In this document: positions 27,785-40,179 of the stretch, one piece after another
How positions within the stretch are numbered: position 1 is the first letter of the stretch
Layout of the letters: each line of letters begins with the position of its first letter
Source: Aquificaceae bacterium
GTDB lineage: Bacteria > Aquificota > Aquificia > Aquificales > Aquificaceae
Assembly: GCA_037925075.1 (NCBI GenBank)
Contig: JAXSNR010000002.1
Span: 288,001-352,000, forward strand
Reading direction: 5' to 3'
Length of the DNA stretch: 64,000 nt
Program-made: the position numbers and the translations under genes
Notes under the pieces: model-generated
The model's input: the letters and a program-made list of their open reading frames with translations, nothing else
Databases searched by the model: none
Told to the model about the DNA's origin: nothing

Positions 27785-29434
27785 ATGGCAGTAGCACATG
27801 TACCACCAGCAGGAACGTGGTACGGTGCCACTCTAAAGGAGTGGGTCTTTACCACCGACCACAAAAAAATAGGTATGCTCTATTTTATCACCTCCCTTGT
27901 CTTCTTTATAGTGGCAGGCCTCTTCGGCCTCATTATCAGGTTTGAGCAGACAGCCCCTGGTATCCAGCTACCGGGTATGTTTGGTCAGGAAGGCACAGAC
28001 CTTTATAACTACATCCTTACTGGTCATGGCGCGGTAATGCTTCTTTGGTGGGCTGTCAACGTCTGGATGGGTGGATTTGCCAACTTCTTGGTTCCACTTA
28101 TGATAGGTGCAAGGGATGTGGCTTTTCCAAGGTTAAACGCCTTTAGTTATTGGTCCTTCTTTGGTGCAAGCCTTTTGGTTCTACTCACTCTAATACCGGG
28201 CAACTGGATAAAGATGCTTTGGACAGGTTATGCACCGTATTCCATGAACGACAACGCAGGACCTACATCCCTTTATGTGCTTATAGTTCTTCTTTACAGC
28301 ATATCTTCCACTGGTGGTTCCGTCAACATGATAACCACCATAGTTAGCATGAGGGCAAAGGGTATTGGATGGACAAAGCTCAACCTCTTTGTTCACGCCA
28401 TAATGGCTGCGAGCCTTATACAGCTCTTTGGTGTTCCCTCTCTTATGGGTAGTGTTATACTTCTTTTCACAGACAAGTACCTTGGTACAAACTTCTACAA
28501 TCCACTTCTTGGTGGAGACCCACTGCTCTATCAACACCTCCTTTGGTTCTACTCTCACCCCGTTGTTTATGTGATGATACTTCCCGCCTTTGGAGTGTTT
28601 TCTGAAGTGATATCCACCATGTCCAGAAAGCCCATCTTTGGTTATATATCTATGGCTTTAGCCATATACGCCATAGCCTTTGTAGGCTTTGAAACATGGG
28701 TTCACCATATGTTTGTTTCTGGTGTGCCAGACTGGTTGAGGGTTCTTTTCTCCTACACCACGCTATTTGTGGGTGTACCAACAGGTATAAAGATATTCAA
28801 CTGGGTTGCCACGCTTCATAGGGCTGCAATCAGATACAATACTCCAATGCTCTATACCTTTGGTGGCATCCTTATGTTCCTAATAGGTGGTCTTACGGGT
28901 ATTCCCAACGCCATGGTTTCTATAGACCTTGGCATATCCGATTCCCTCTTTATAGTTGGGCACTTCCACTATGTGCTTGGTATGGCTCTTACCTTTGGAG
29001 CCTTTAGTGGTATCTACTATTGGTTCCCCAAAGTTACAGGAAGGATGTATTCAGAGGGACTTGGAAAGCTCAGCTTTTGGCTTATGCTCATAGGTGCAAA
29101 CATCATGTTCTTCTTCCAGATGTACATAGGAATGGCTAATGGTATGCCCAGAAGATACCCTGATTATCCACCTATACCAGAATGGGTGCAGCTTATGCAA
29201 ATCCAAACCGTTGGTGCTCTCATAATGACAGTTGCAATACTCCTATCCCTTATAAACTGGATAAAGAGCCTGAAGGGTCCAAAGGCAGAGGACAATCCTT
29301 GGGGTTCTCCTTCTCTTGAGTGGAGCATGACAACCACGCCAGTAGGACCCAACAACTTTAAGAGATACCCCGTAGAAGTTCCAGAAGACTGGCATCCCTA
29401 TGCCTACTTTAAGGGATACCACGCACACGTTTAA
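27785..29434 (+). CDS. coxA: Cytochrome c oxidase subunit I, A2-type
   Basis: TDHKKIG, DVAFPRLN, WFYSHPVVY (YS motif marks A2), WVHH, PTGIK, HFH, MPRRY. Confidence 0.97.
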   Translation: MAVAHVPPAGTWYGATLKEWVFTTDHKKIGMLYFITSLVFFIVAGLFGLIIRFEQTAPGIQLPGMFGQEGTDLYNYILTGHGAVMLLWWAVNVWMGGFANFLVPLMIGARDVAFPRLNAFSYWSFFGASLLVLLTLIPGNWIKMLWTGYAPYSMNDNAGPTSLYVLIVLLYSISSTGGSVNMITTIVSMRAKGIGWTKLNLFVHAIMAASLIQLFGVPSLMGSVILLFTDKYLGTNFYNPLLGGDPLLYQHLLWFYSHPVVYVMILPAFGVFSEVISTMSRKPIFGYISMALAIYAIAFVGFETWVHHMFVSGVPDWLRVLFSYTTLFVGVPTGIKIFNWVATLHRAAIRYNTPMLYTFGGILMFLIGGLTGIPNAMVSIDLGISDSLFIVGHFHYVLGMALTFGAFSGIYYWFPKVTGRMYSEGLGKLSFWLMLIGANIMFFFQMYIGMANGMPRRYPDYPPIPEWVQLMQIQTVGALIMTVAILLSLINWIKSLKGPKAEDNPWGSPSLEWSMTTTPVGPNNFKRYPVEVPEDWHPYAYFKGYHAHV

Positions 29435-29458
29435 TGTTGGTGGTGCACCTCTTATCTT

Positions 29459-29482
29459 GTCCCCCTCTTGGGGGGCTTTTTT
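29459..29482 (+). terminator. Rho-independent terminator after coxA
   Basis: GTCCCCC-TCTT-GGGGGGC followed by T6. Confidence 0.75.
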
Positions 29483-29503
29483 ATTTATTTGGAGGTATAT
29501 TAT

Positions 29504-29686
29504 ATGACCCAGGAGCAGAAAAAGAAGCTGACTGGTATCATAGTTGGCCTTGTAGTCCTTGGGGGCTTCCTCACAGGACTTTTGGGCATGATCTTTTCTG
29601 AGAAGAACAGGGAGTATTTTATAAATAGGCTGAAGAACATAAAGAATGTGCCCTACATAAGGCAAGATAAGGACCCAACAAAATGA
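29504..29686 (+). CDS. Small single-TM protein downstream of coxA
   Basis: SD GGAGGT, MTQEQKKK followed by a hydrophobic helix; stop overlaps the next ATG. Confidence 0.75.
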   Translation: MTQEQKKKLTGIIVGLVVLGGFLTGLLGMIFSEKNREYFINRLKNIKNVPYIRQDKDPTK

Positions 29687-30252
29687 GCTTTGATGCGGTC
29701 ACACTTGGCCACATCCTTATAGTGGTTGCGAGGCTTTTGGAGATGTTCAGTTTTGGTATGGTTTTGCTTTTTGTATTTAAAGGCGTTGCTCTCAAACATA
29801 TATTCCTTACCGCAGGGATAACGGTAGGTGGCATACTTGTTTCCATATTCGGCTATTTGGGAAATTTACTTTCTCCTGCTACCTCCTTTGCGGTGGATGC
29901 CTTTGTTTTTTCTGTGGTTATTGCCATAGCCTTCTACGCCTTTATGGAAAAGAGAGAACTTAGAATAAAACCTCCACCTATACCTCCAAAGGGAACAAGA
30001 TGTCCAGTATGTGGTGGTTTTGTAAAGGTTGAGGATGATTATGCGGTAGTAAGGGAAGGCAAAGACCTACTTTATTTTGACTCCTTGGACCACCTCAAAA
30101 GCTTCCTTGAGAACTTCCAAGAGTACAAGAAACTCAGAAGGCTTAACTTCAGAAGGGTGGAGGACATTTACATAAAGGGCGATGCGGGTTGGAAAAGGGT
30201 TGGTGAGTTAGAAGATAAAAAATTAGGGCGATTCCTCAAAACATTCCAATAA
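29683..30252 (+). CDS. Membrane protein with C-terminal YHS/TRASH-like domain
   Basis: About 3 TM helices, Pro linker, CPVCG...LYFDSLDHLKSF. Confidence 0.7.
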   Translation: MSFDAVTLGHILIVVARLLEMFSFGMVLLFVFKGVALKHIFLTAGITVGGILVSIFGYLGNLLSPATSFAVDAFVFSVVIAIAFYAFMEKRELRIKPPPIPPKGTRCPVCGGFVKVEDDYAVVREGKDLLYFDSLDHLKSFLENFQEYKKLRRLNFRRVEDIYIKGDAGWKRVGELEDKKLGRFLKTFQ

Positions 30253-30259
30253 TACTCTT

Positions 30260-30997
30260 TTGATGTTGATATTATCTAATGCCTTCGCTGATGTTTTTAT
30301 GGAACAGAGGATTTTTTATCGCGAATTTCCCGAGGTCTTCATTACCTCATCAAATGGGAGGGAATACAACCTGAAGGAGCTTTCCTATCAGAAACCTTTA
30401 ATTCTCACAATCATTTTTACAAGATGTGGTAGTATTTGCCCTGCTTTAATTTTATCACTTAAAAATGCTCTGGAAAATTCCAAGGAGAAAGGGAAATATA
30501 TTACTTTTATTTTGAGTTTTGCTCCAGATGATAAGCTGGAGGATATAAAAGATTACAAAAATTCTCTTGGATTTTCGGATAAGGAAGATATTATTTTTGG
30601 AATTATTAATTCATCCGGTAAAGATTTTTTTCTCAAAACCATTGGGTTCGATTACAAAAAAATCGAAGGTACAACTCAATATGATCATCCTGCGATTATT
30701 TACGCACTTTATAAGGGAAGGATTATGAGGATTCTTTATGGTTCAAATTTTGGAAGCAAGGAATTAGATATGATGGTAAGAAATGCGCTTGGTGAATGGG
30801 AAATATCTTACACTTTGCCTGATCCTAAAATTCCATATAGATGTTATGGTTATAACTTTTCTACTGGTAATTTTGAAATTGATATTGGATTTTGGCTGAT
30901 GTATCTTCCGTGGTTTTTTGGTTTTTTTCTTACATTAGTGTTTACAATTCACAGATCACTAATAAAAAGGAGAACAAGGTATGTATGTGGCTCCTGA
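30260..30997 (+). CDS. Second SCO1/SenC protein (AT-rich; 5' end possibly damaged)
   Basis: CGSIC, YDHPA, C-terminal CYGYNF plus TM; no clear SD or start. Confidence 0.8.
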   Translation: MMLILSNAFADVFMEQRIFYREFPEVFITSSNGREYNLKELSYQKPLILTIIFTRCGSICPALILSLKNALENSKEKGKYITFILSFAPDDKLEDIKDYKNSLGFSDKEDIIFGIINSSGKDFFLKTIGFDYKKIEGTTQYDHPAIIYALYKGRIMRILYGSNFGSKELDMMVRNALGEWEISYTLPDPKIPYRCYGYNFSTGNFEIDIGFWLMYLPWFFGFFLTLVFTIHRSLIKRRTRYVCGS

Positions 30998-31751
30998 AGA
31001 AGCTGTAAAATCAATGTTATCAGCGGTGGAAAAGAAAGCATCTTTATCTGTTGGAAAAATGCTTATAAGAGGTTTTCTTTCAGGAGCAATTCTTGGGTAT
31101 GCAACTTCTTTGTCTTTTGTCCCTCAATCTCAGGGATTACCACCATTTATAGGTGCTGTTATATTCCCAGTTGGGTTTGTTATCCTTGTTCTTATGGGAC
31201 TTGAGCTTGTAACAGGTAATTTTGCTTTATTTCCAATGGGGTTGATGGCGGGGAATGTCAGCTGGTCAAAAACTCTTCGCAATTGGTTTTGGGTTTATAT
31301 TGGAAACTTACTTGGTGGTGTGGCATATGCTTTCCTCTATACCATTTCTGTTGCTAATTATGATCCTAAGATAATTGAAATACTAAATTCCATAGCATTT
31401 TCCAAAATTGCTTCCTATCAGCAAGCTGGTGGGTTTGGCATCATACTTGCAATGTTAAAGGGTATTTTGTGCAACTGGATGGTTACAGCTGCAACTGCAA
31501 TGGCTTTCTTTTCAACAACCACCATTGGGAAGGCATTTACAATGTGGTTTCCGATAATGGCATTCTTTGCTTTGAAGTATGAACATAGTGTCGTTAATAT
31601 GTTTGTTCTTCCTGCTGCTATAATGGTAGGGTCTCCTAATGCAACTGTGGAAAGCTGGTGGATATGGAATCAAATACCTGTAACAATAGGAAACATCCTG
31701 GGCGCGGTTATGTTTACATCTTTACCGCTTATGACTCATTATAAAAAGTAG
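30981..31751 (+). CDS. Formate/nitrite transporter (FNT) family channel
   Basis: FPVG, ELVTGN, GILCNWMV, YEHSVVNMF, GNILG; SD AAGGAG. Confidence 0.93.
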   Translation: MYVAPEEAVKSMLSAVEKKASLSVGKMLIRGFLSGAILGYATSLSFVPQSQGLPPFIGAVIFPVGFVILVLMGLELVTGNFALFPMGLMAGNVSWSKTLRNWFWVYIGNLLGGVAYAFLYTISVANYDPKIIEILNSIAFSKIASYQQAGGFGIILAMLKGILCNWMVTAATAMAFFSTTTIGKAFTMWFPIMAFFALKYEHSVVNMFVLPAAIMVGSPNATVESWWIWNQIPVTIGNILGAVMFTSLPLMTHYKK

Positions 31752-32031
31752 AAAAAATCTAAATGACAGGAAAAGTAAGAACAATTGCTCTGTCGCAAAC
31801 ATCATAAATTTTAAGGATAAAAGATGAAAATTCTAAAAACAATAAAAAATTCTCCTCCTTTTCCTTCTCTTACTAAAATGTGTAAGTTATATACAACTAC
31901 TAATAACAAAGCTATCTTATCTTTTGTTTCATCTCTCCTCTCTCAAACTATCTGTAAATGGTGATTCCTCAAAATATCCCACTAATTTTAAATTTATTAT
32001 TATAATTAAAATAATTAGGAGGCGGGCTTTT

Positions 32032-32722
32032 ATGAACTTGGTAAAAATATTTGAAGTAGTAAAAGATGAGAAGGGAGCTGAAGAGTTTTTAAGACAAAAG
32101 GGAATTCTTTTGACCTTTGACAGATGTCCATATTGTGGACACCATAAATTTGTAGAGTGAGAAGGAATTTTTTAAAATGTCAAAAGTGCTCAAGAGAATG
32201 GAGCATAAGAAAGGGCTCCGTTCTTGAAAAAATGAAAATATCTTTTTCAAAGTTTATCTTAGCCTTGAAACTTTTTGAGCTTAAGGTTCCTGCATTGAGG
32301 GCTTGCAAAGAACTGGGTGTTGCTTACAATACCATACACAACATCTTTATGCTCATAAGGGAAAGGATATACAAAGAGACTTCGGGGGATGATATTCTTC
32401 AGGGGGAGGTAGAAGCGGATGAGAGCTACTTTGGAGGAAGAAGGAAAGGGAAGAGAGGGAGAGGGTCAAGAGGGAAGATACCTGTTTTTGGTATATTGGA
32501 GAGAAAGGGGAAGGTGAAACTTCAGATAGTGAAAGATGTGACTGGAGAGACTATACTAAGGGAGGTAATAAAGAAGGTGAAGAGGGGGAGTTTGATTTAC
32601 ACGGATAAGTTTAGGAGCTGCGATGGATTGGTGATTTATGGATTTAAGCATGAGCGTATAGATCACGGAAAGAGGTTTGCAAATGGGAGGGCATATATAA
32701 ATGGTATAGAGGGATTTTGGGG
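32032..32722 (+). mobile_element. IS1595 (ISXO2-like) transposase remnant, frameshifted and truncated
   Basis: CPYC..CQKC Zn ribbon split by a frameshift near 32157; VEADESYFGG, RGRG, IYTD, NGIEGFW, after which similarity stops. Confidence 0.88.
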
Positions 32723-32742
32723 CTATAATTATAATCGTATTT

Positions 32743-33300
32743 ATGAATTATGGAATACTAATTGTTTTGTCCCTATACCTCCTTGCCTGTGCGGAAAAAA
32801 CTACGGTTGTAGTGGAAGATACACCACCTCCCGCAAGGCCACCTGGTCTTGTTGTTGCTTCAGAAAAGGCTTTAGAAAACGGGAAAAAACACCTAAGAAG
32901 GGGCAACTGTGGGAAGGCTATACACGAGTTTGAGAAGGCTCTTACTAAAAATCCTAACAACTTTGAAGCTCTGTACTGGCTTGGAGTTGCAGAGGGTATG
33001 TGCGGATATTACCACAGGGCATACGACAGATTTGTCCTTGCTCTAAAGTATTCACCGGATAAGGGCTGGCAGGCAAGGGTTTATGCAACCATAGGTTTAA
33101 CCCTTTTGTACATGGGTAGGGATGATGATGCGGTGGTTTACTTTGAAAGGGCAAGGGCTATTGACCCAAGGAACGACATAGTTATCGCTTACTACGACTG
33201 GGAAGAGCATGAAAGGGGCAAAGGTCCCAAAAAGCACAAGATAAAGAAAAAGCCAAGGGATAAGGAAGGCTTTGAGCTTACATTAAGATGGCTTGATTAA
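32743..33300 (+). CDS. TPR-repeat lipoprotein
   Basis: LLAC lipobox; repeats such as AIHEFEKAL..NPNNFEALYWLG and AVVYFERA..IDP. Confidence 0.85.
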   Translation: MNYGILIVLSLYLLACAEKTTVVVEDTPPPARPPGLVVASEKALENGKKHLRRGNCGKAIHEFEKALTKNPNNFEALYWLGVAEGMCGYYHRAYDRFVLALKYSPDKGWQARVYATIGLTLLYMGRDDDAVVYFERARAIDPRNDIVIAYYDWEEHERGKGPKKHKIKKKPRDKEGFELTLRWLD

Positions 33301-34253
33301 GGTATGCTTTCCGCATATGTTTTGCTTAGCTTGAAAAGCCTTTTTGCCAAAGTCTTGGCTTCTTCTTTTTTCTCATAGTGGGGGTCGTCCAACAAAAAGC
33401 TGTTTACCTTCCCTCTCACGTAAGCCCTGTAGCACTTGAAAAAGGGCAAAAACAGGTCAAACTCCTCATCCTGAGTTATTCTTCTGTACTCATCTTCGTA
33501 GGCCTTTGAAAGGTCTTTTCTTCCAACAAGGTCAAGCTCCATTGAAAGAAAGCACATGTCGTTTAGCATATCTCCACATCTGAACCTGTCGTTAAACTCA
33601 ATGCAGTCAAAAACGCATATACCCTCTTCAAGAAAGGCCACATGCTCAAGCCTTATGTCTCCATGCCCATCTACGATACGCCCATCCCTTATGCGTTTTT
33701 CAAATAGGTCTGCATGCTCCTTGTAAAAGTGCTCTGTTTTTTCCCTTATAAACTCGTAGTCCTCTTTGTCTATGGTTATGCCTACGTACTTTTCCGTTTG
33801 CATGAAGTTTTCATCTGTGTTGAACTTCGTAACCTCTAACCTTCCGAACTCCCCTCTCCTTTCAGCCCTCTTGTGAAACTCCGCTATGTGTCTTGCAAGC
33901 CTTCTTATGTCCTCATCTGAAATCTCTGAAAGCATGTTTTTTAAAAGTCTCTCCTCCGGTATTCTTCTCATCTTTACCGCATACTCCACTGGGTTGGACT
34001 CCTCTTCAATTAAATACTTTCCGTCCGCCTCGCTTATGGGCACCACATCTAAATAAACCCACTTGCAAAGCCTCCTGTTTAATTCAATCTCTTTTTTGCA
34101 GTTTTCAAGCCTTTTTTCCAATGTGGAGTAATCCAAAAAGCCAAAGTTCACGGGCTTTTTTATCTTATAGACCACCTCCTCCAAAAGCAATACCCAGCTT
34201 GTGTGAGTTTGGACAACCTGAGCTTTTAGACTTTTAGCCAACTCCTCAATCAT
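33297..34253 (-). CDS. Aminoglycoside-phosphotransferase-like kinase (COG2187 type), no C-terminal P-loop domain
   Basis: QTHTSWV, YKIKKPVNFGFLDYS, HGDIRLEH, FDCIEFN, YRAYVRGKV. Confidence 0.85.
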   Translation of the reverse strand: MIEELAKSLKAQVVQTHTSWVLLLEEVVYKIKKPVNFGFLDYSTLEKRLENCKKEIELNRRLCKWVYLDVVPISEADGKYLIEEESNPVEYAVKMRRIPEERLLKNMLSEISDEDIRRLARHIAEFHKRAERRGEFGRLEVTKFNTDENFMQTEKYVGITIDKEDYEFIREKTEHFYKEHADLFEKRIRDGRIVDGHGDIRLEHVAFLEEGICVFDCIEFNDRFRCGDMLNDMCFLSMELDLVGRKDLSKAYEDEYRRITQDEEFDLFLPFFKCYRAYVRGKVNSFLLDDPHYEKKEEAKTLAKRLFKLSKTYAESIP

Positions 34254-34617
34254 GTATCAGCTCGCAAAGTCTTTTAAAGTATTCTAACACTTTCGGTAGC
34301 TCCTCGTATATTCTATTGGCAAGTTCTTCTTCGTAGGTGTGGGATGTGAGGTTTCTGTAGTCGCATATCTGAAGCCAGTAGGGGTCATGGTCTATAAGGC
34401 TAAGGGAAAAGGCAAGTCTAAAACAACCTTTTGGAGAGTGGCACTCAAGCCCGTGCACCTTCAGTAAGTAGTCCTTTAGGGACTTCCAAGCAAGGTCAAA
34501 GGCAAACTCAAACCTCTGTATTGCGGAATCCCTTATTATTTCGTTCTTTTCTGGCAAGCTCAAAACCTCTTCAAGCCTTTGCAAAGCCCTTTTAAAATGC
34601 TCAAGCCTTGCACTCAT
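34246..34617 (-). CDS. HEPN domain protein (HI0074 family)
   Basis: DSAIQRFE, SPK, RNLTSHTY (Rx4HxY). Confidence 0.92.
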   Translation of the reverse strand: MSARLEHFKRALQRLEEVLSLPEKNEIIRDSAIQRFEFAFDLAWKSLKDYLLKVHGLECHSPKGCFRLAFSLSLIDHDPYWLQICDYRNLTSHTYEEELANRIYEELPKVLEYFKRLCELIHD

Positions 34618-34918
34618 GAATAACCTCTATCTGTCTTAAGGCATTCCTTTTGAATTCCTCCGATACCCTGTTAAAATCCACAAGGTCCACCTTGTAAAGG
34701 GTTGGTAAGTTCTCTATATCCTCCTCTATCTGTGCCCATTTGAAGGGGTCAATGGGCGGACCCTCTATACCCACATCCACATCAGAACCTTTTCCGCTCA
34801 TGCCTTGTACCCTTGAGCCAAAGAAAAATACCCTATACTTTGAAAGGTCAAGGTGTTTTGAAAGGATCCTAAGAAGCTCCTCTTTTAGCTTTTCTACTGG
34901 ATACCCCTCTAACTCCAT
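34601..34918 (-). CDS. Minimal nucleotidyltransferase (MNT, HI0073-like)
   Basis: FGSRVQGMSGKGSDVD (GSx10DxD), KVDLVD. Confidence 0.92.
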   Translation of the reverse strand: MELEGYPVEKLKEELLRILSKHLDLSKYRVFFFGSRVQGMSGKGSDVDVGIEGPPIDPFKWAQIEEDIENLPTLYKVDLVDFNRVSEEFKRNALRQIEVIHECKA

Positions 34919-34935: not shown

Positions 34936-35907
34936 ATGAGCCAGACGCTGGCTGAAAAGTTTTATTACCTTATGAAGTTGGGAAGGGAGTTTGAGATAAG
35001 GTGCAAAGAAGAGTATCTCAAGGGCAACATTTCGGGCTTTTTGCATCTTGCCATAGGTGAGGAGGCGGTGCATGTGGGGGCGGTGGTGGGCTTTGGGAAG
35101 GGTGACCTCTTTTGTCCCTACCGTGAGCATGTACTGGCACTGGCAAGAGGTATTGACCCCAAGCTTATTATGGCGGAGCTTTTTGGAAAGGCTACAGGAG
35201 TATCCAAGGGTAAGGGTGGATCCATGCACCTGTATGAGCCAAAGATGGATTTTTACGGAGGCAATGCCATAGTGGCAGCACATCTTCCCCATGCGGTGGG
35301 TGCGGCGTACGCAAGGAAGTTGATGGGAGAAAAGGCTGGAGTTTTGTGTATTTTCGGAGACGGTGCCACCAACAACGGTACCTTTTTTGAAGCCATAAAC
35401 ATGGCAAGCCTTTGGGAGGTGCCAGTCCTTTTCCTCTGTGAGAACAACTACTACGCCATAGGGACGCATATAAGCAGGTCTTCTGCCCTCAAGGAACTTT
35501 ATCTTAAGGCAAGGGACTATATGCCCGCGGAGGTGGTGGATGGTATGGATGTGTTTGCGGTCTATGAGGCGGTGGTCAGAGCAAAGCAATACATAGAGGA
35601 GTACGGCAAGCCCTACTTTATTGAGGCATACACCTACCGCTTTGAGGGGCACTCTATGGCGGATAAAGGAGACTACAGGTCTCCAAGGGAGATAGAAATG
35701 TTTCGCAAGAGGGACCCAATAAACCTGCTTGTGGAAAGGTCTCTTAGGGAAGGCTGGCTTACAGAAGAACAGATAAGGCTTATAGACCAAAAGGTGGAGG
35801 CTGTGGTGGAGGAGGCGGTGGAGTTTGCCTTGAGCTCTCCAGAGCCTTCTGAAGAGGAGCTATACACAGACCTTTACTGTGGGGTATGCTCTGATGTTAT
35901 ACCGTGA
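34936..35907 (+). CDS. pdhA: Pyruvate dehydrogenase E1 alpha
   Basis: GFLHL, YREH, GKGGSMH, GDGA..N TPP motif, RFEGHSMAD. Confidence 0.9.
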   Translation: MSQTLAEKFYYLMKLGREFEIRCKEEYLKGNISGFLHLAIGEEAVHVGAVVGFGKGDLFCPYREHVLALARGIDPKLIMAELFGKATGVSKGKGGSMHLYEPKMDFYGGNAIVAAHLPHAVGAAYARKLMGEKAGVLCIFGDGATNNGTFFEAINMASLWEVPVLFLCENNYYAIGTHISRSSALKELYLKARDYMPAEVVDGMDVFAVYEAVVRAKQYIEEYGKPYFIEAYTYRFEGHSMADKGDYRSPREIEMFRKRDPINLLVERSLREGWLTEEQIRLIDQKVEAVVEEAVEFALSSPEPSEEELYTDLYCGVCSDVIP

Positions 35908-36871
35908 TGCCCTAAACTTAGCCCTTGACCATGCCATGGAACATGACAGTAGGGTGGTGGTCCTTGGGGAGGATGTGGGCTTTTACGGAGGAAACTACAA
36001 GGTAACAGATGGGCTTTATGTAAAGTACGGACCAAAAAGGGTTATAGACACACCCATAGCGGAAAACTCCATAGTGGGTACAGCCATAGGAATGGCTCTT
36101 ATGGGGCTTCGCCCTGTGGCGGAGATAATGACAGTGAACTTTGCCATGTTGGTAATGGACCAGTTTGTAAATCAGATGGCAAAGCTAAGGTATATGAGCG
36201 GTGGAAAGCTCATGCTTCCTTTGGTGGTTCGTATGCCTCAGGGTGTGGCAAAACAGTTGGCGTCGCAACACTCCCAAAGCCTTGAACATTTCTTCGCAAG
36301 CGTGCCCGGTCTTTACGTTTTTTCCGCCTCCGACTCCATAAGTGCCTATCATGGGCTTTTGCATGCCATAAGGATGGATGACCCGGTTGTATTCCTTGAA
36401 CATACCCTTTTGTACAGTATGGACTTTCCCTTTGAGTATGTGCGAGATTTTGACCCCTTTAGGGCAAGGCTCTTGAGAGAAGGACAGCATATAACGGTGG
36501 TCTCTTATCTTAAGATGGTTCATGACGTTTTAAAAGCCTGTGAGTGGCTTGAAGAAAGGGATGGCATATCCTGTGAGGTGATAGACCTTGTTTCCTTAAG
36601 ACCTATAGACTTTGAAACCATATACCAGTCTGTGAAAAAGACGCACAGGCTTGTAGTGGTTTATGAAGCTCCAAAAACTCTTGGGCTTGGTGCGGAGGTC
36701 TCCGCAAGGGTTTGTGAAGAGCTTTTCTACTTTTTGGATGCACCGCCCCTTAGGATTGCAGGAGAGGAAGTTCCCATACCCTACAACAGAAAGTTGGAGC
36801 TTATGGCAATACCCACTCCAGAAAAGATATACTCACAGATACTTAGCTGGAGTAAAAGCCATGGACTATGA
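35894..36871 (+). CDS. pdhB: Pyruvate dehydrogenase E1 beta
   Basis: GEDVG, DTPIAE, RPVAEIMT, QHSQ, DDPVVFLEH. Confidence 0.9.
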   Translation: MLYRDALNLALDHAMEHDSRVVVLGEDVGFYGGNYKVTDGLYVKYGPKRVIDTPIAENSIVGTAIGMALMGLRPVAEIMTVNFAMLVMDQFVNQMAKLRYMSGGKLMLPLVVRMPQGVAKQLASQHSQSLEHFFASVPGLYVFSASDSISAYHGLLHAIRMDDPVVFLEHTLLYSMDFPFEYVRDFDPFRARLLREGQHITVVSYLKMVHDVLKACEWLEERDGISCEVIDLVSLRPIDFETIYQSVKKTHRLVVVYEAPKTLGLGAEVSARVCEELFYFLDAPPLRIAGEEVPIPYNRKLELMAIPTPEKIYSQILSWSKSHGL

Positions 36872-38090
36872 GATTCTCATGCCCCAGTTTTCGGATACTA
36901 TGGAAAGGGGGAAGATAGCCCGGTGGCTCAAAAAGGAAGGGGACTATGTGGAAAAGGGCGAAGTCATAGCGGAGATAGAGGCGGAAAAGGCGGTTATGGA
37001 GCTTCAAAGTTTCAAAAGGGGGACTTTGAAAAAAATACTGGCTTTTGAAGGGCAAGAAGTGGAGGTGGGAAAGCCCATAGCCATAATAGAACTGGGCGAA
37101 AAAGTAGAGAAAACAGAAGAGCCAAAGAAAGAAGAAAAGCCAAAGGTTGAAGAGATAAAGCCACCACCTTTAAAAGAAACCAAGCAGAAGATTGAACTCC
37201 CTCCCGGCTTTGCTTCACCTTATGCAAGGCTTTTGGCAAGCGAAAAGGGTATAGATCTGGAGGAGCTTCAAAAAGAAGGCAGATTGCCCTCACCAACCCA
37301 TGCAAGGGACATAGAGGAGTTTGAAAAGGAAAGATACTTTACTCCAAAGGCTTGGGAGCTTCTCAAGGAGTATGACGTGAGCCTACAGGAGCTTCTTAGA
37401 GAGTACCCACAAAAGAAGATAGATGAGGACCTACTTCTTGCCTACGTGGAAAAAAGGGGCATTCCCAAAAGGGTACCCATATCTTCCGTGCAAAAGAGCC
37501 TGATATCAAACCTTTCAAAAAGCTTTCTTGTACCTCACTACCACATATACGAGGTTTTTGACCTTTCCCTAATACCTTGGGACAGGGAGATAACATTAAC
37601 CCACTGGCTTATAAAGGTGGTGGGCGATGCCATGCACTTCTTTGAAAGGCTTAGGGCGGTCTACAAAGAAGACCACTACCTTGTGTACCCCGACTCCAAT
37701 GTGGGTGTTGCCATAGCGGTGGGTGATGAGCTTTACAATCCTGTGGTAAAGGCGGTAAACAAAAAGAGCCTGAAGGAGATAGCCCAAGAGGTCAGAAGCC
37801 TTAGAAAAAAGGCTGAGGAGGGAAGGCTTGAGCTTGAAGATATGAAGGGTGCAACCCTTACCATATCAAACCTTGGCATGTTTGGAATAAGAGCCTTTGA
37901 TGCGGTAATACCTTACGGGCAGGTTTGCATAATGGCGGTGGGTATGCAAGAAAACGACGGGAAGGCACATGTGAGTTTTACCTTTGACCACAGAGTTGTA
38001 AACGGCTTTCATTCAGCCTTGTTTGTAAAGCATCTGAAGGAAAAACTCCTTGACAGGAACTACATAAAGATGCTAAAAAAGGGAGCATGA
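36861..38090 (+). CDS. pdhC: Dihydrolipoamide acyltransferase E2
   Basis: Lipoyl domain MPQFSDTM..EAEKAVME, PSBD-like ASPYARLLA, TISNLG, FDHRVVNG; start placed at MDYEIL. Confidence 0.9.
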   Translation: MDYEILMPQFSDTMERGKIARWLKKEGDYVEKGEVIAEIEAEKAVMELQSFKRGTLKKILAFEGQEVEVGKPIAIIELGEKVEKTEEPKKEEKPKVEEIKPPPLKETKQKIELPPGFASPYARLLASEKGIDLEELQKEGRLPSPTHARDIEEFEKERYFTPKAWELLKEYDVSLQELLREYPQKKIDEDLLLAYVEKRGIPKRVPISSVQKSLISNLSKSFLVPHYHIYEVFDLSLIPWDREITLTHWLIKVVGDAMHFFERLRAVYKEDHYLVYPDSNVGVAIAVGDELYNPVVKAVNKKSLKEIAQEVRSLRKKAEEGRLELEDMKGATLTISNLGMFGIRAFDAVIPYGQVCIMAVGMQENDGKAHVSFTFDHRVVNGFHSALFVKHLKEKLLDRNYIKMLKKGA

Positions 38091-38091
38091 T

Positions 38092-39324
38092 ATGTTTGAC
38101 TACGACGTTATAGTGCTTGGTGGAGGGCTTGCCTATGTGGGTGTGGAGGTCCTAAGAAATGCGGGTTTAAAGGTGGCGGTGGTGGAAAAAGACCCAAACC
38201 ATCTCGGAGGTGTATGTCTTCACGAAGGATGCGTGCCCACAAAGCTTTACCTTTTTGAGGCAAGAAAGGCCTTTGACCTAAAAAGCTCAGCCCTTATCTC
38301 TACAAGGGACTTGAGCCTAAACTTAAAAACCCTTAAAGAGAAAAAGCAAAGGCTTACAAAAGCCCTCAGAGACCAGATAGAAAAGCTTCTAAAAGGTGTG
38401 GACCTCATATACGGAAAGGGAGAGCTTGTAGAGCCCCATGTGGTGGAAGTGGAAGGCAGAAGGATAAGCGGAAGGTTTATCATCATAAACACCGGCAAGT
38501 CCTATCCCCAGAAGCCAAACGGTGATGACCTTTTGGAGATTGAAGAGCTTCCCCAGAGCATTAAACTTGCTGGAGATGACCCAATACTCCTTGAATTTGC
38601 CTGTATGTATGCCCTCATGGGTGTGTCCGTTGAAGCATACTTTGAGGACAAAAGCCTTGATTTTATGCATCCTTCTTTAAAGGGAAGGCTTTTAAAGGTT
38701 TTAAAGGAGCTTAACATACTCTTTAAGCCCCTTTCCGAAGTTCCCACCGATGGGGTGTATTGGCTAAAAAAAAGGGTTCCCAACTCAGAGTGTATAAAGG
38801 TTGGCCTTGCAAGGGATGAATTGGGTCATATATTGGTAGATAAAAGCTACGAGACTTCCTTAAAGGACCACTACGCGGTAGGAGACATAAACGGTATTGT
38901 GGAGCTTGCACATGCTAGCAGGCTTCAGTCTCTTTCTGTGGCACTCAGGCTTACAAAAGGTCAAGGCTTTTTTACACCCAAGTACAAGATTCCCTACGTG
39001 CTTTACACACAACCCCTTTCCTATGCAAAGGTGGGCTTTACAAAGAGGGAGCTTGAGGAGAAAAGAGTGGAGCATGTGGAAAAAAGCGTAAGCCTCAGAG
39101 CCTTTGCGGTAGGAAGCATAAACCACACGGAAGAGGGTATGGCTTTTCTTTACTTTGACAAGAAGGGCTTTTTGCTTGGTGGCGAGATCCTTTCAAGGGA
39201 TGCGGGCGAACTTATATCTGTTCTTACGGTAAGCCTCTTTTCGGAGCTTAACCTTGATATGCTTTCAAGACTTTGCCTACCACATCCCACACTGGGAGAA
39301 ACACTATTTTTGAGACTTTTATGA
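38092..39324 (+). CDS. Dihydrolipoamide dehydrogenase-like E3 with degenerate NAD-binding domain
   Basis: GGVCLHEGCVPTK, AVGD, LAHAS and HPTLGE present; second Rossmann GxGxxG reads AGDDPIL; 410 aa. Confidence 0.85.
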   Translation: MFDYDVIVLGGGLAYVGVEVLRNAGLKVAVVEKDPNHLGGVCLHEGCVPTKLYLFEARKAFDLKSSALISTRDLSLNLKTLKEKKQRLTKALRDQIEKLLKGVDLIYGKGELVEPHVVEVEGRRISGRFIIINTGKSYPQKPNGDDLLEIEELPQSIKLAGDDPILLEFACMYALMGVSVEAYFEDKSLDFMHPSLKGRLLKVLKELNILFKPLSEVPTDGVYWLKKRVPNSECIKVGLARDELGHILVDKSYETSLKDHYAVGDINGIVELAHASRLQSLSVALRLTKGQGFFTPKYKIPYVLYTQPLSYAKVGFTKRELEEKRVEHVEKSVSLRAFAVGSINHTEEGMAFLYFDKKGFLLGGEILSRDAGELISVLTVSLFSELNLDMLSRLCLPHPTLGETLFLRLL

Positions 39325-39576: not shown

Positions 39577-40179
39577 ATGAAGTACGATGTGGTTATTGTT
39601 GGTGGGGGAGCGAGCGGTCTCTCTTGTGCTCTTACCTTGGCATCCGCAAGGGGAAGGGGTTGGCAGTGGGCGGAAGGAAGAAAATATCTTATCTTTGATA
39701 CGGATAATTCAGACCTAAAAAAGGCTTTTCTTAAGAACGTGCCAGGCTTATACCCTGTTAATGGTACAGAGCTTTTAAAAAAGATAAGAAAACAGATAGA
39801 AGAATGGGGAGGTGTGGATTTTCTTCAGGAGGAGGTGGTCAGGATAGAAAAAAAGGAGGGGTTTTTTGAGGTGGAAGGCTCAAGCGGTAGAGTTTTCTAT
39901 GCGGACTATGTGGTGCTTGCAGGGGGATTTCACTCCTTTAACATAAAGGGTCTTCAGGTGGAGCTTGTGGAAAACCCAAGGTCTCCAAAACCGGGTAGGG
40001 TTATGATATGGCATAAGGACTATGAGGTGGATAAAAACCTCTTTGTGGCGGGAACTCTTGCGGGTCTCTCTTCACACTTTACCTCTTGTGCTGGCTCTGG
40101 CGTTGAGGTTGCCATTGAAATACTCTCAAGGTTTGCAGGCAAGAGGATAGTCATACACGACGTGCCAGAAGAAGCTTGA
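39577..40179 (+). CDS. Short TrxB-like flavoprotein, FAD domain only
   Basis: DVVIVGGGASG, VVLAGG, FVAGT, C-terminal HD; no CxxC or NADPH domain; 200 aa. Confidence 0.8.
   Translation: MKYDVVIVGGGASGLSCALTLASARGRGWQWAEGRKYLIFDTDNSDLKKAFLKNVPGLYPVNGTELLKKIRKQIEEWGGVDFLQEEVVRIEKKEGFFEVEGSSGRVFYADYVVLAGGFHSFNIKGLQVELVENPRSPKPGRVMIWHKDYEVDKNLFVAGTLAGLSSHFTSCAGSGVEVAIEILSRFAGKRIVIHDVPEEA

Follow-up and report, generated by a model that had tools for sequence, protein, structure and literature searches.

Dihydrolipoyl dehydrogenase (E3, LpdA; TIGR01350; EC 1.8.1.4; PDB 2eq7, 1ebd) is the NAD-linked exit of the 2-oxoacid dehydrogenases. Among enzymes of the thioredoxin-reductase type, there are documented cases in which the NAD(P)H site was lost and the redox partner exchanged: FFTR and DDOR keep FAD and a Cys pair and do without the NAD(P)H motif (PMC9025218). 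The pyrophosphate is held by the GxGxxA/G motif, the 2′-phosphate of NADPH by an Arg that follows strand beta-B (PMC10910545). Of the glycines, the second comes nearest to the pyrophosphate, and exchanging it is disabling in most cases; in engineered NMN-specific enzymes, its substitution is combined with an aromatic residue in place of the ribose-binding Glu and with another Glu close by (PMC12822633). Within the pyruvate dehydrogenases (PDHs), the enzyme of vent Campylobacterota has been linked to that of Sulfurihydrogenibium, by E1 phylogeny only (PMC3958643), while PMC3917532 concerns lipoate synthesis. In the full-text literature that we searched, mostly free of subscription papers and supplements, we found no description of an E3 devoid of the NAD(P) site or of the clade reported here.

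A candidate for such an enzyme, an E3-like flavoprotein that we call E3′, is encoded in the window, a stretch of 64,000 nucleotides from an Aquificaceae genome. A preliminary description of this DNA had proposed that the protein lost its NAD site, kept its lipoamide side and rendered PDH independent of NAD. We compared E3′ with its relatives in sequence, predicted structure, gene context and selection.

A PDH operon with an E3-like flavoprotein in last place

Four tightly packed genes on the plus strand encode E1 alpha, E1 beta, E2 and E3′:

34936..35907, plus strand: PDH E1 alpha, 323 aa (PF00676, E 1.8e-80)
35894..36871, plus strand: PDH E1 beta (PF02779 and PF02780; NF006667 336.7 bits, above cut-off)
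36861..38090, plus strand: E2 acetyltransferase, 409 aa (PF00364, PF02817, PF00198)
38092..39324, plus strand: E3′, 410 aa, an open frame that begins 1 base past the E2 stop

The E1 alpha subunit scored 381 bits on TIGR03182, slightly below the cut-off of 393.85, and carries the ThDP-binding GDG...NN motif. E2 consists of a lipoyl domain (EAEKA, with the lipoyl Lys), a subunit-binding domain and a catalytic domain (DHRVVNG, with the catalytic His). Its lipoyl motif (window 36861-37100) reads E-A-E-K-A in 15/15 Aquificaceae E2s and E-[TS]-D-K-A in 12 of 13 others; this change may have accompanied E3′ and, being seen in one clade, counts as one event.

The region upstream of the operon (27785-31751) encodes cytochrome oxidase subunit I, an uncharacterised membrane protein of 189 aa, an SCO-like protein and a formate/nitrite transporter, and parts of this block recur near the operon in other loci of the same genus. 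A transposase-like frame at 31980-32933, which we take from its motifs to be IS1595-like, is seemingly broken by frameshifts and runs into the next TPR gene. Directly before pdhA lie two small minus-strand genes (34246-34918), presumably resembling a nucleotidyltransferase and HEPN-type pair. At 39577-40179, a 200-aa thioredoxin-reductase-like protein comprises the FAD-binding part only. It was considered as a partner of E3′ and rejected, as it adjoins E3′ in only some same-genus loci and is absent from others that were read.

Retained and replaced motifs of E3′

The predicted model of E3′ (pLDDT 90.4) shows the E3 fold, including a Rossmann remnant that folds confidently. It matches solved E3s with a Foldseek TMq of 0.90 and superimposes on E3 with Z 41 and an rmsd of 2.1 Å over 405 residues; the three domains of the E3/glutathione-reductase fold, among them the PF02852 dimerisation domain, are all present. 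The alignment with LpdA and the structure model, both suggested at the outset, thus revealed a retained fold with replaced dinucleotide motifs. The relevant features are listed below, with counts over the 27 full-length members of the clade (the partial proteins P0028 and P0029 excluded):

38119..38136, plus strand: glycine-rich FAD loop GGGLAY, residues 10-15; the canonical loop has one residue more
38206..38244, plus strand: redox disulfide motif GGVCLHEGCVPTK; Cys42, Cys47 and Lys51 invariant in 27/27
38572..38595, plus strand: remodelled dinucleotide loop GDDPILLE (161-168); Asp163 and Glu168 each in 27/27
38641..38646, plus strand: end of strand beta-B, Phe184-Glu185; Asp or Glu at 185 in 26/27
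38764..38775, plus strand: LKKR (225-228) in place of A-T/V-G-R; Gly replaced by Lys or Arg in 27/27
38902..38904, plus strand: Glu271 (26/27), aligned with human E3 Met326
39283..39300, plus strand: His398-Pro-Thr-Leu-Gly-Glu403 dyad, invariant in 27/27; the chain stops 7 residues later

E3′ shares with LpdA the fold, the redox CxxxxC, the Lys-Glu pair, the His-Glu dyad, the FAD GD motif and the position after E2. GGVCLHEGC (residues 39-47) and the HPTLGE dyad had been described as intact, and both proved invariant in 27/27, as did the FAD residues Glu32, Gly135, Gly264 and Asp265. Invariant positions number only 67 out of 410, and none of the three remaining Cys positions is among them. The FAD motif, by contrast, had wrongly been called intact: its loop, GGGL-AY, lacks the third Gly and is shorter by one residue, a form that is also found in the sister clade.

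What sets E3′ apart from LpdA is the absence of the NAD GxGxxG, of the ribose-binding Glu and of the Gly before Arg228, together with a shorter NAD domain, a short C-terminus and a score on TIGR01350 of 188.5 bits, under the cut-off of 408.8. The readings LAGDDPILLE (159-168) for the NAD motif and LKKR for AVGR, both given in the preliminary description, were confirmed. None of the 27 members has GxGxx[GA]xE, which occurs in 21/21 canonical LpdA, in 142/145 other representatives and in 120/121 of the sister matches listed. The third Gly of the loop is lost in 24/27 (Ala, Leu or Ile), and Pro164, equally in 24/27, takes away a loop backbone NH. Met326 of human E3, the counterpart of Glu271, contacts both FAD and NAD (PMC10341545). 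Glu168, Arg228 and Tyr305 are kept in 27/27, Pro230 in 25/27 and Asn231 in 26/27.

The NAD domain falls short of that of LpdA by ~33 residues overall, so that the earlier estimate of 30-40 was about right. By medians, the span from Gly135 to Gly161 measures 27 residues in E3′ and 37 in canonical LpdA, and that from Glu168 to Arg228 measures 61 (range 59-63) compared to 84 in canonical LpdA and 77-83 in the sister; directly before LKKR, ~20 residues of beta-meander are absent. Spans of ≤70 occur in 30/325 other E3-like proteins, most of which, among those inspected, keep the dinucleotide motif. The deletion is therefore not diagnostic of lost binding, and it is the substitutions rather than the shortened length that carry the argument for a putative loss of NAD(P) binding. 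A PDB sequence search with the 80-residue E3′ stretch gave one chance match (E 1.8), while the sister's 98-residue NAD(P) domain, serving as control, retrieved 95 sequences at E ≤ 0.01. PF00070 still scored at E ≤ 0.01 in 19/26 E3′ members. The median net charge of the remodelled domain is –2, compared to +2 in the sister.

The lipoamide side has changed as well. A median of 6 residues follows the dyad Glu in E3′, compared to 10 in the sister and 20 in canonical LpdA, and two charged residues, Glu19 (26/27) and Arg336 (27/27), have become newly fixed; their stretches presumably line the disulfide-substrate cleft. Complex prediction for the E3′ dimer with FAD and E2 residues 110-160 returned a score of 0.00, which speaks neither for nor against binding; a single-sequence fold of the sister E3 (pLDDT 35) was too low for use. 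In the ESM Atlas, E3′ matched only generic clusters of pyridine nucleotide-disulfide oxidoreductases. By motif and score, E3′ falls outside the LpdA family on the NAD side, and its conserved residues make it likely that it is E3-like on the lipoamide side.

Distribution and purifying selection

A protein search with E3′ returned 29 clusters at 50-100% identity, with the next matches at ~30%. The profile built from 26 clusters detected E3′ in 21/178 genomes of the phylum, all of them in four genera of the Aquificaceae, a family of hot-spring bacteria, and an exhaustive search of 1.84 billion representatives yielded two clusters of the E3′ family and nothing else above 290 bits. E2 lies immediately upstream of E3′ in 18/21 loci and is present in 20/21 E3′ genomes, one genome having E3′ without E2. 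Conversely, two genomes carry E2 without E3′; one of them is 54% complete, and E2 is located at a contig end in both. In three genomes an intact E3′ is found away from E2 (L019/L041 of G083, L012 of G064, L015 of G053); in G064 it comes after genes for a [2Fe-2S] ferredoxin and a flavin-reductase-like protein. A partner gene travelling with the operon was not found in the loci read.

No internal stops were found in the 21 genomic matches. Over the 9 of 210 genome pairs with pS < 0.6, which are not independent of each other, the dN/dS of E3′ was 0.109 (range 0.09-0.13, Nei-Gojobori) and that of the NAD-domain remnant 0.15. The same pairs gave 0.064 for LpdA and 0.076 for E2 (8 pairs). With a ratio ~1.4-1.7 times that of E2 and LpdA, the constraint on E3′ is strong, yet somewhat weaker than on these two proteins. 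Throughout the clade, the dinucleotide motifs are lost and purifying selection acts on the gene, which is what the preliminary description had suggested testing for homologs in the PDH operons of Aquificota.

Relationship to the E3 of vent Campylobacterota

To place E3′, we assembled 121 E3s (the best 120 of 445 matches plus the Nitratiruptor query, L075) from the type-II PDH of vent Campylobacterota, including Nitratiruptor, Nautilia, Hydrogenimonas and Sulfurimonas. E3′ is sister to these proteins (support 100/100, starred), with a stem of 1.03 compared to 0.29 for the sister; a quick tree of 95 rows gave the same placement. The two clades are ~34% identical and share the GGGL-xY loop and a YTxPxSY insertion. 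The PDH operon of Nitratiruptor ends in an E3 with the same short FAD loop, and Leu13 and Tyr15 of this loop occur in 99% of the 121 matches listed. Since the shape is common to the sister, the short loop of E3′ is inherited and not damage. Judged by E1 alpha, the closest PDH operons are those of Hydrogenothermaceae (64-71%) and vent Campylobacterota (61-64%), and the E1 tree reads (Campylobacterota, (Hydrogenothermaceae, Aquificaceae)) with all three groups starred.

The same test had been suggested for Campylobacterota; their E3 retains GxGxx[GA]xE, A-T-G-R and an Arg-His after beta-B that is of the NADP type by alignment. Comparison with the sister matches listed brought out the changes specific to E3′. 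The second Gly (121/121) became Asp163 in 27/27, the third Gly at 166 is present in 119/121, Arg185 (118/121) gave way to Asp or Glu, and Gly227 (121/121) to Lys or Arg; Gln or Met at position 271 was replaced by Glu, and Lys or Arg at position 302 by Tyr in 27/27. The ribose strand is indeed altered, as the preliminary description had it, in that the Glu is absent. This loss, however, predates the clade: the sister already has Phe or Tyr there in 100/121 matches listed, Phe184 is inherited, and the derived change is that of the next residue from Arg to Asp/Glu.

In the sister (L075:8540-9844, P0243-P0362), Arg-His replaces the NAD-binding Glu, and the pair aligns with mercuric reductase. As its Arg matches that of mercuric reductase, the ancestor was probably of the NADP type, and NADP appears more likely than NAD as the ancestral cofactor of E3′. 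By the same alignment, an NADP-linked PDH is predicted in vent Campylobacterota. In Nitratiruptor and Nautiliales, the PDH operon is headed by a 110-aa gene of the CMD/AhpD family with a CxxC (PF02627), at the following positions:

L075:5047-5385: CMD/AhpD gene
L077:5676-6005: CMD/AhpD gene
L080:1850-2179: CMD/AhpD gene
L097:5676-6005: CMD/AhpD gene

This gene suggests a lipoamide-linked peroxidase route; with the Campylobacterota gene as query, no such AhpD/CMD partner was found in the source genome. We infer that the PDH operon arrived with an NADP-type E3 in cells already holding LpdA, and that this E3 would then have been lost in Hydrogenothermaceae and remodelled in Aquificaceae along the long stem, to be held afterwards.

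A canonical LpdA beside E3′

The source genome encodes a second, canonical LpdA (C2:586086-587477) with GGGAVGVE, the Glu and GVGR, which passes TIGR01350 with 416.1 bits. A stand-alone LpdA with intact motifs was present in 21/21 E3′ genomes. The idea of an NAD-independent PDH is thus not supported as stated. Five GcvH-family proteins and a glycine cleavage P protein are also encoded in the source genome, and the resident LpdA presumably serves these; a shared E3 has been proposed for such systems (PMC6067878).

The same E2 was found in 27/50 Hydrogenothermaceae genomes. Their PDH operons (L062-L070, L073) comprise E1 alpha, E1 beta and E2 only, and no E3 was seen in the flanks of the 10 loci read beyond the end of E2. 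Neither E3′ nor a sister-type E3 was found in the 50 genomes, with a positive control that covers 9 of the 27 E2-bearing ones, while a stand-alone LpdA is present in 47/50. In those 9 genomes, a joint profile retrieved an LpdA with canonical motifs in 9/9, an E3 of the clade in 0/9 and otherwise only other full-length relatives. The same E2 without a clade E3 suggests that stand-alone LpdA can serve PDH. The resident LpdA is probably the E3 with which this PDH works, so that the source organism, too, likely has a route that forms NADH. Given a canonical LpdA in every E3′ genome and Hydrogenothermaceae without E3′, catalysis by E3′ is not required by gene content.

Possible roles of E3′

Because the disulfide and flavin residues are invariant and the groove is filled by fixed acidic and basic residues, a lipoamide-to-FAD enzyme is the simplest reading of E3′. 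E3′ would still bind FAD and oxidise E2-bound dihydrolipoamide through the Cys pair and the His-Glu dyad. Asp163 and Lys/Arg227 are predicted to form a pair that spans the pyrophosphate groove and shuts it. Electrons would leave the flavin for a non-dinucleotide acceptor, most likely O2 or quinone. Beside E3′, the intact stand-alone LpdA would supply the NADH-forming route, and PDH would have an outlet that is independent of the NAD(P)H pool. We give about even chances to this reading, an active FAD/disulfide E3 without the ability to bind NAD(P), whose electrons would be vented to an acceptor other than a dinucleotide, probably O2 or quinone. When no NAD+ is present, the flavin of canonical E3 itself passes electrons to O2 in the forward direction (PMC6776566). 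With this precedent, with both acceptors downhill and with no linked partner gene, O2 and quinone are favoured over the others on the originally proposed list of ferredoxin, quinone, O2 or a partner flavoprotein; ferredoxin is the least attractive of these. It counts against this reading that E3′ as an oxidase would generate reactive oxygen within a microaerophile and, together with the two copies of 2-oxoacid:ferredoxin oxidoreductases of the source genome, could run a futile cycle.

The changes on the lipoamide side weigh against catalysis, as the shorter tail and the new Glu19 and Arg336 may alter the lipoamide channel, and they keep a regulatory or scaffold role alive. E3′ might then be a non-turnover subunit, bound to E2 or paired with LpdA as scaffold, redox buffer or brake of PDH, with LpdA doing all the reoxidation. 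Such a role would fit the intact LpdA in every E3′ genome, the searched Hydrogenothermaceae that combine E2 and LpdA without a clade E3, the short tail with its new charges, and the want of a linked acceptor gene. A scaffold, however, would need neither the Cys pair nor Lys51-Glu168 nor His-Glu, yet all of these are invariant while other Cys and His residues drift; an E3′-LpdA heterodimer would need only the His-Glu, judging from the two-subunit active site of E3 (PMC10341545). We consider a non-turnover role unlikely, though a serious contender.

Alternatively, the loss could be confined to the adenylate half of the site, with E3′ using a truncated nicotinamide cofactor such as NMN+. The kept residues Glu168, Arg228, Tyr305, Pro230 and Asn231 and the confidently folding Rossmann remnant are compatible with this, and Asp163, Phe184 and Asp/Glu185 resemble the engineered NMN-specific combination, in which the second Gly is substituted and beta-B ends in an aromatic and an acidic residue. 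Phe184 was, however, inherited from the sister form. To our knowledge, there is no natural NMN-dependent enzyme of central metabolism, and free NMN is scarce in cells. The engineered enzymes, laboratory variants of phosphite dehydrogenase and GapA, moreover carry Gln or Arg and not Asp at the second Gly, and most second-Gly changes lower the NMN activity as well (PMC12822633). This makes NMN use quite improbable.

That E3′ continues to employ NAD+ or NADP+, either weakly or with the cofactor in a displaced position, appears more doubtful still. A second-Gly change alone left NAD(P)+ use unblocked in one enzyme (PMC12822633), short beta-meanders coexist with intact motifs, and PF00070 is still detected in most members. 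In E3′, however, the residues at four to five contact positions were jointly exchanged for acidic or bulky ones, which are fixed; Pro164 removes the loop NH, and no PDB relative recognises the domain.

Exchange of electrons with ferredoxin, possibly in the lipoamide-reducing direction, would bring E3′ close to FFTR and DDOR. At the sequence level, the likeness lies in the missing NAD(P)H motif and the kept FAD residues and Cys pair. These enzymes, however, have the low-Mr thioredoxin reductase fold with CxxC, lack the dimerisation domain and His-Glu, and receive electrons from ferredoxin or glutathione, whereas E3′ belongs to the glutathione-reductase/E3 class, with CxxxxC and PF02852, and is tied to PDH; the precedent thus comes from another class of disulfide reductases (PMC9025218). 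The source genome has small ferredoxins, and one displaced E3′ comes after a [2Fe-2S] ferredoxin gene. This ferredoxin is present in 80/90 genomes of the family but adjacent to E3′ in only 1/21 loci, and the gene-context test gave no signal for it as a co-inherited partner. The remodelled domain is not basic, and 2-oxoacid oxidoreductases linked to ferredoxin are already present. Ferredoxin potentials are lower than that of lipoamide. With lipoamide at –0.29 V (PMC6067878), a forward step to ferredoxin would be uphill, and we regard a ferredoxin-linked E3′ as very improbable. Decay into a copy made redundant by LpdA is largely refuted and has next to no probability left: the redundancy is real and the stem is long, but the 410-aa frame is open throughout, as originally noted, the 21 matches are free of stops, dN/dS is low in 9/9 pairs, E3′ persists at 50-100% identity over four genera, including the three genomes in which it is not beside E2, and no close homolog with an intact GxGxxG exists among the 27 full-length members.

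Returning to the active E3 that vents electrons, we hold the broader proposal, at a little under even chances, that E3′ is a natural NAD(P)-free E3, which would give PDH two selectable outlets, one to NADH via LpdA and one of its own via E3′ that bypasses dinucleotides (to O2, quinone, a carrier protein or a mononucleotide such as NMN+), and that a second LpdA-like family shrank independently. If E3′ turns over, it would make for a PDH that is insensitive to NADH and, judging from the source, likely thermostable. It would then also offer a natural example of how a Rossmann site can be closed, an aim of orthogonal-cofactor engineering. It also bears on why autotrophs with the reductive TCA cycle retain PDH beside pyruvate:ferredoxin oxidoreductase. 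As a regulatory subunit only, E3′ would be of moderate importance.

A second family of short LpdA-like proteins

Aquificaceae contain a second family of short LpdA-like proteins, comprising 31 clusters of 391-419 aa (P0122-P0152). Its loci include the following, as well as L033, L035-L038 and L050:

L034:6131-7324: short LpdA-like gene, V4R-linked family
L039:5933-7123: short LpdA-like gene, V4R-linked family
L040:4374-5576: short LpdA-like gene, V4R-linked family

The gene usually adjoins a V4R gene and often sat, cysG, sulfite reductase or APS reductase; the family was not found in the source genome. It lacks the same beta-meander as E3′ and groups in the tree with long E3-like proteins, the resident LpdA among them, and a single origin of the shrinkage of the NAD domain in both families was rejected (AU p 4.6e-8). 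The Cys pair and His-Glu are kept, while the NAD motif is drifting (GSGASACE, GEGPSACE, GNDPSAYE). Most members keep both glycines; Asp replaces the second Gly in 4/31, and these same four, and no others, are without the Gly before the Arg. This joint loss, possibly one event, supports a structural coupling of the two positions. The V4R-linked family is a candidate disulfide reductase for sulfate assimilation.
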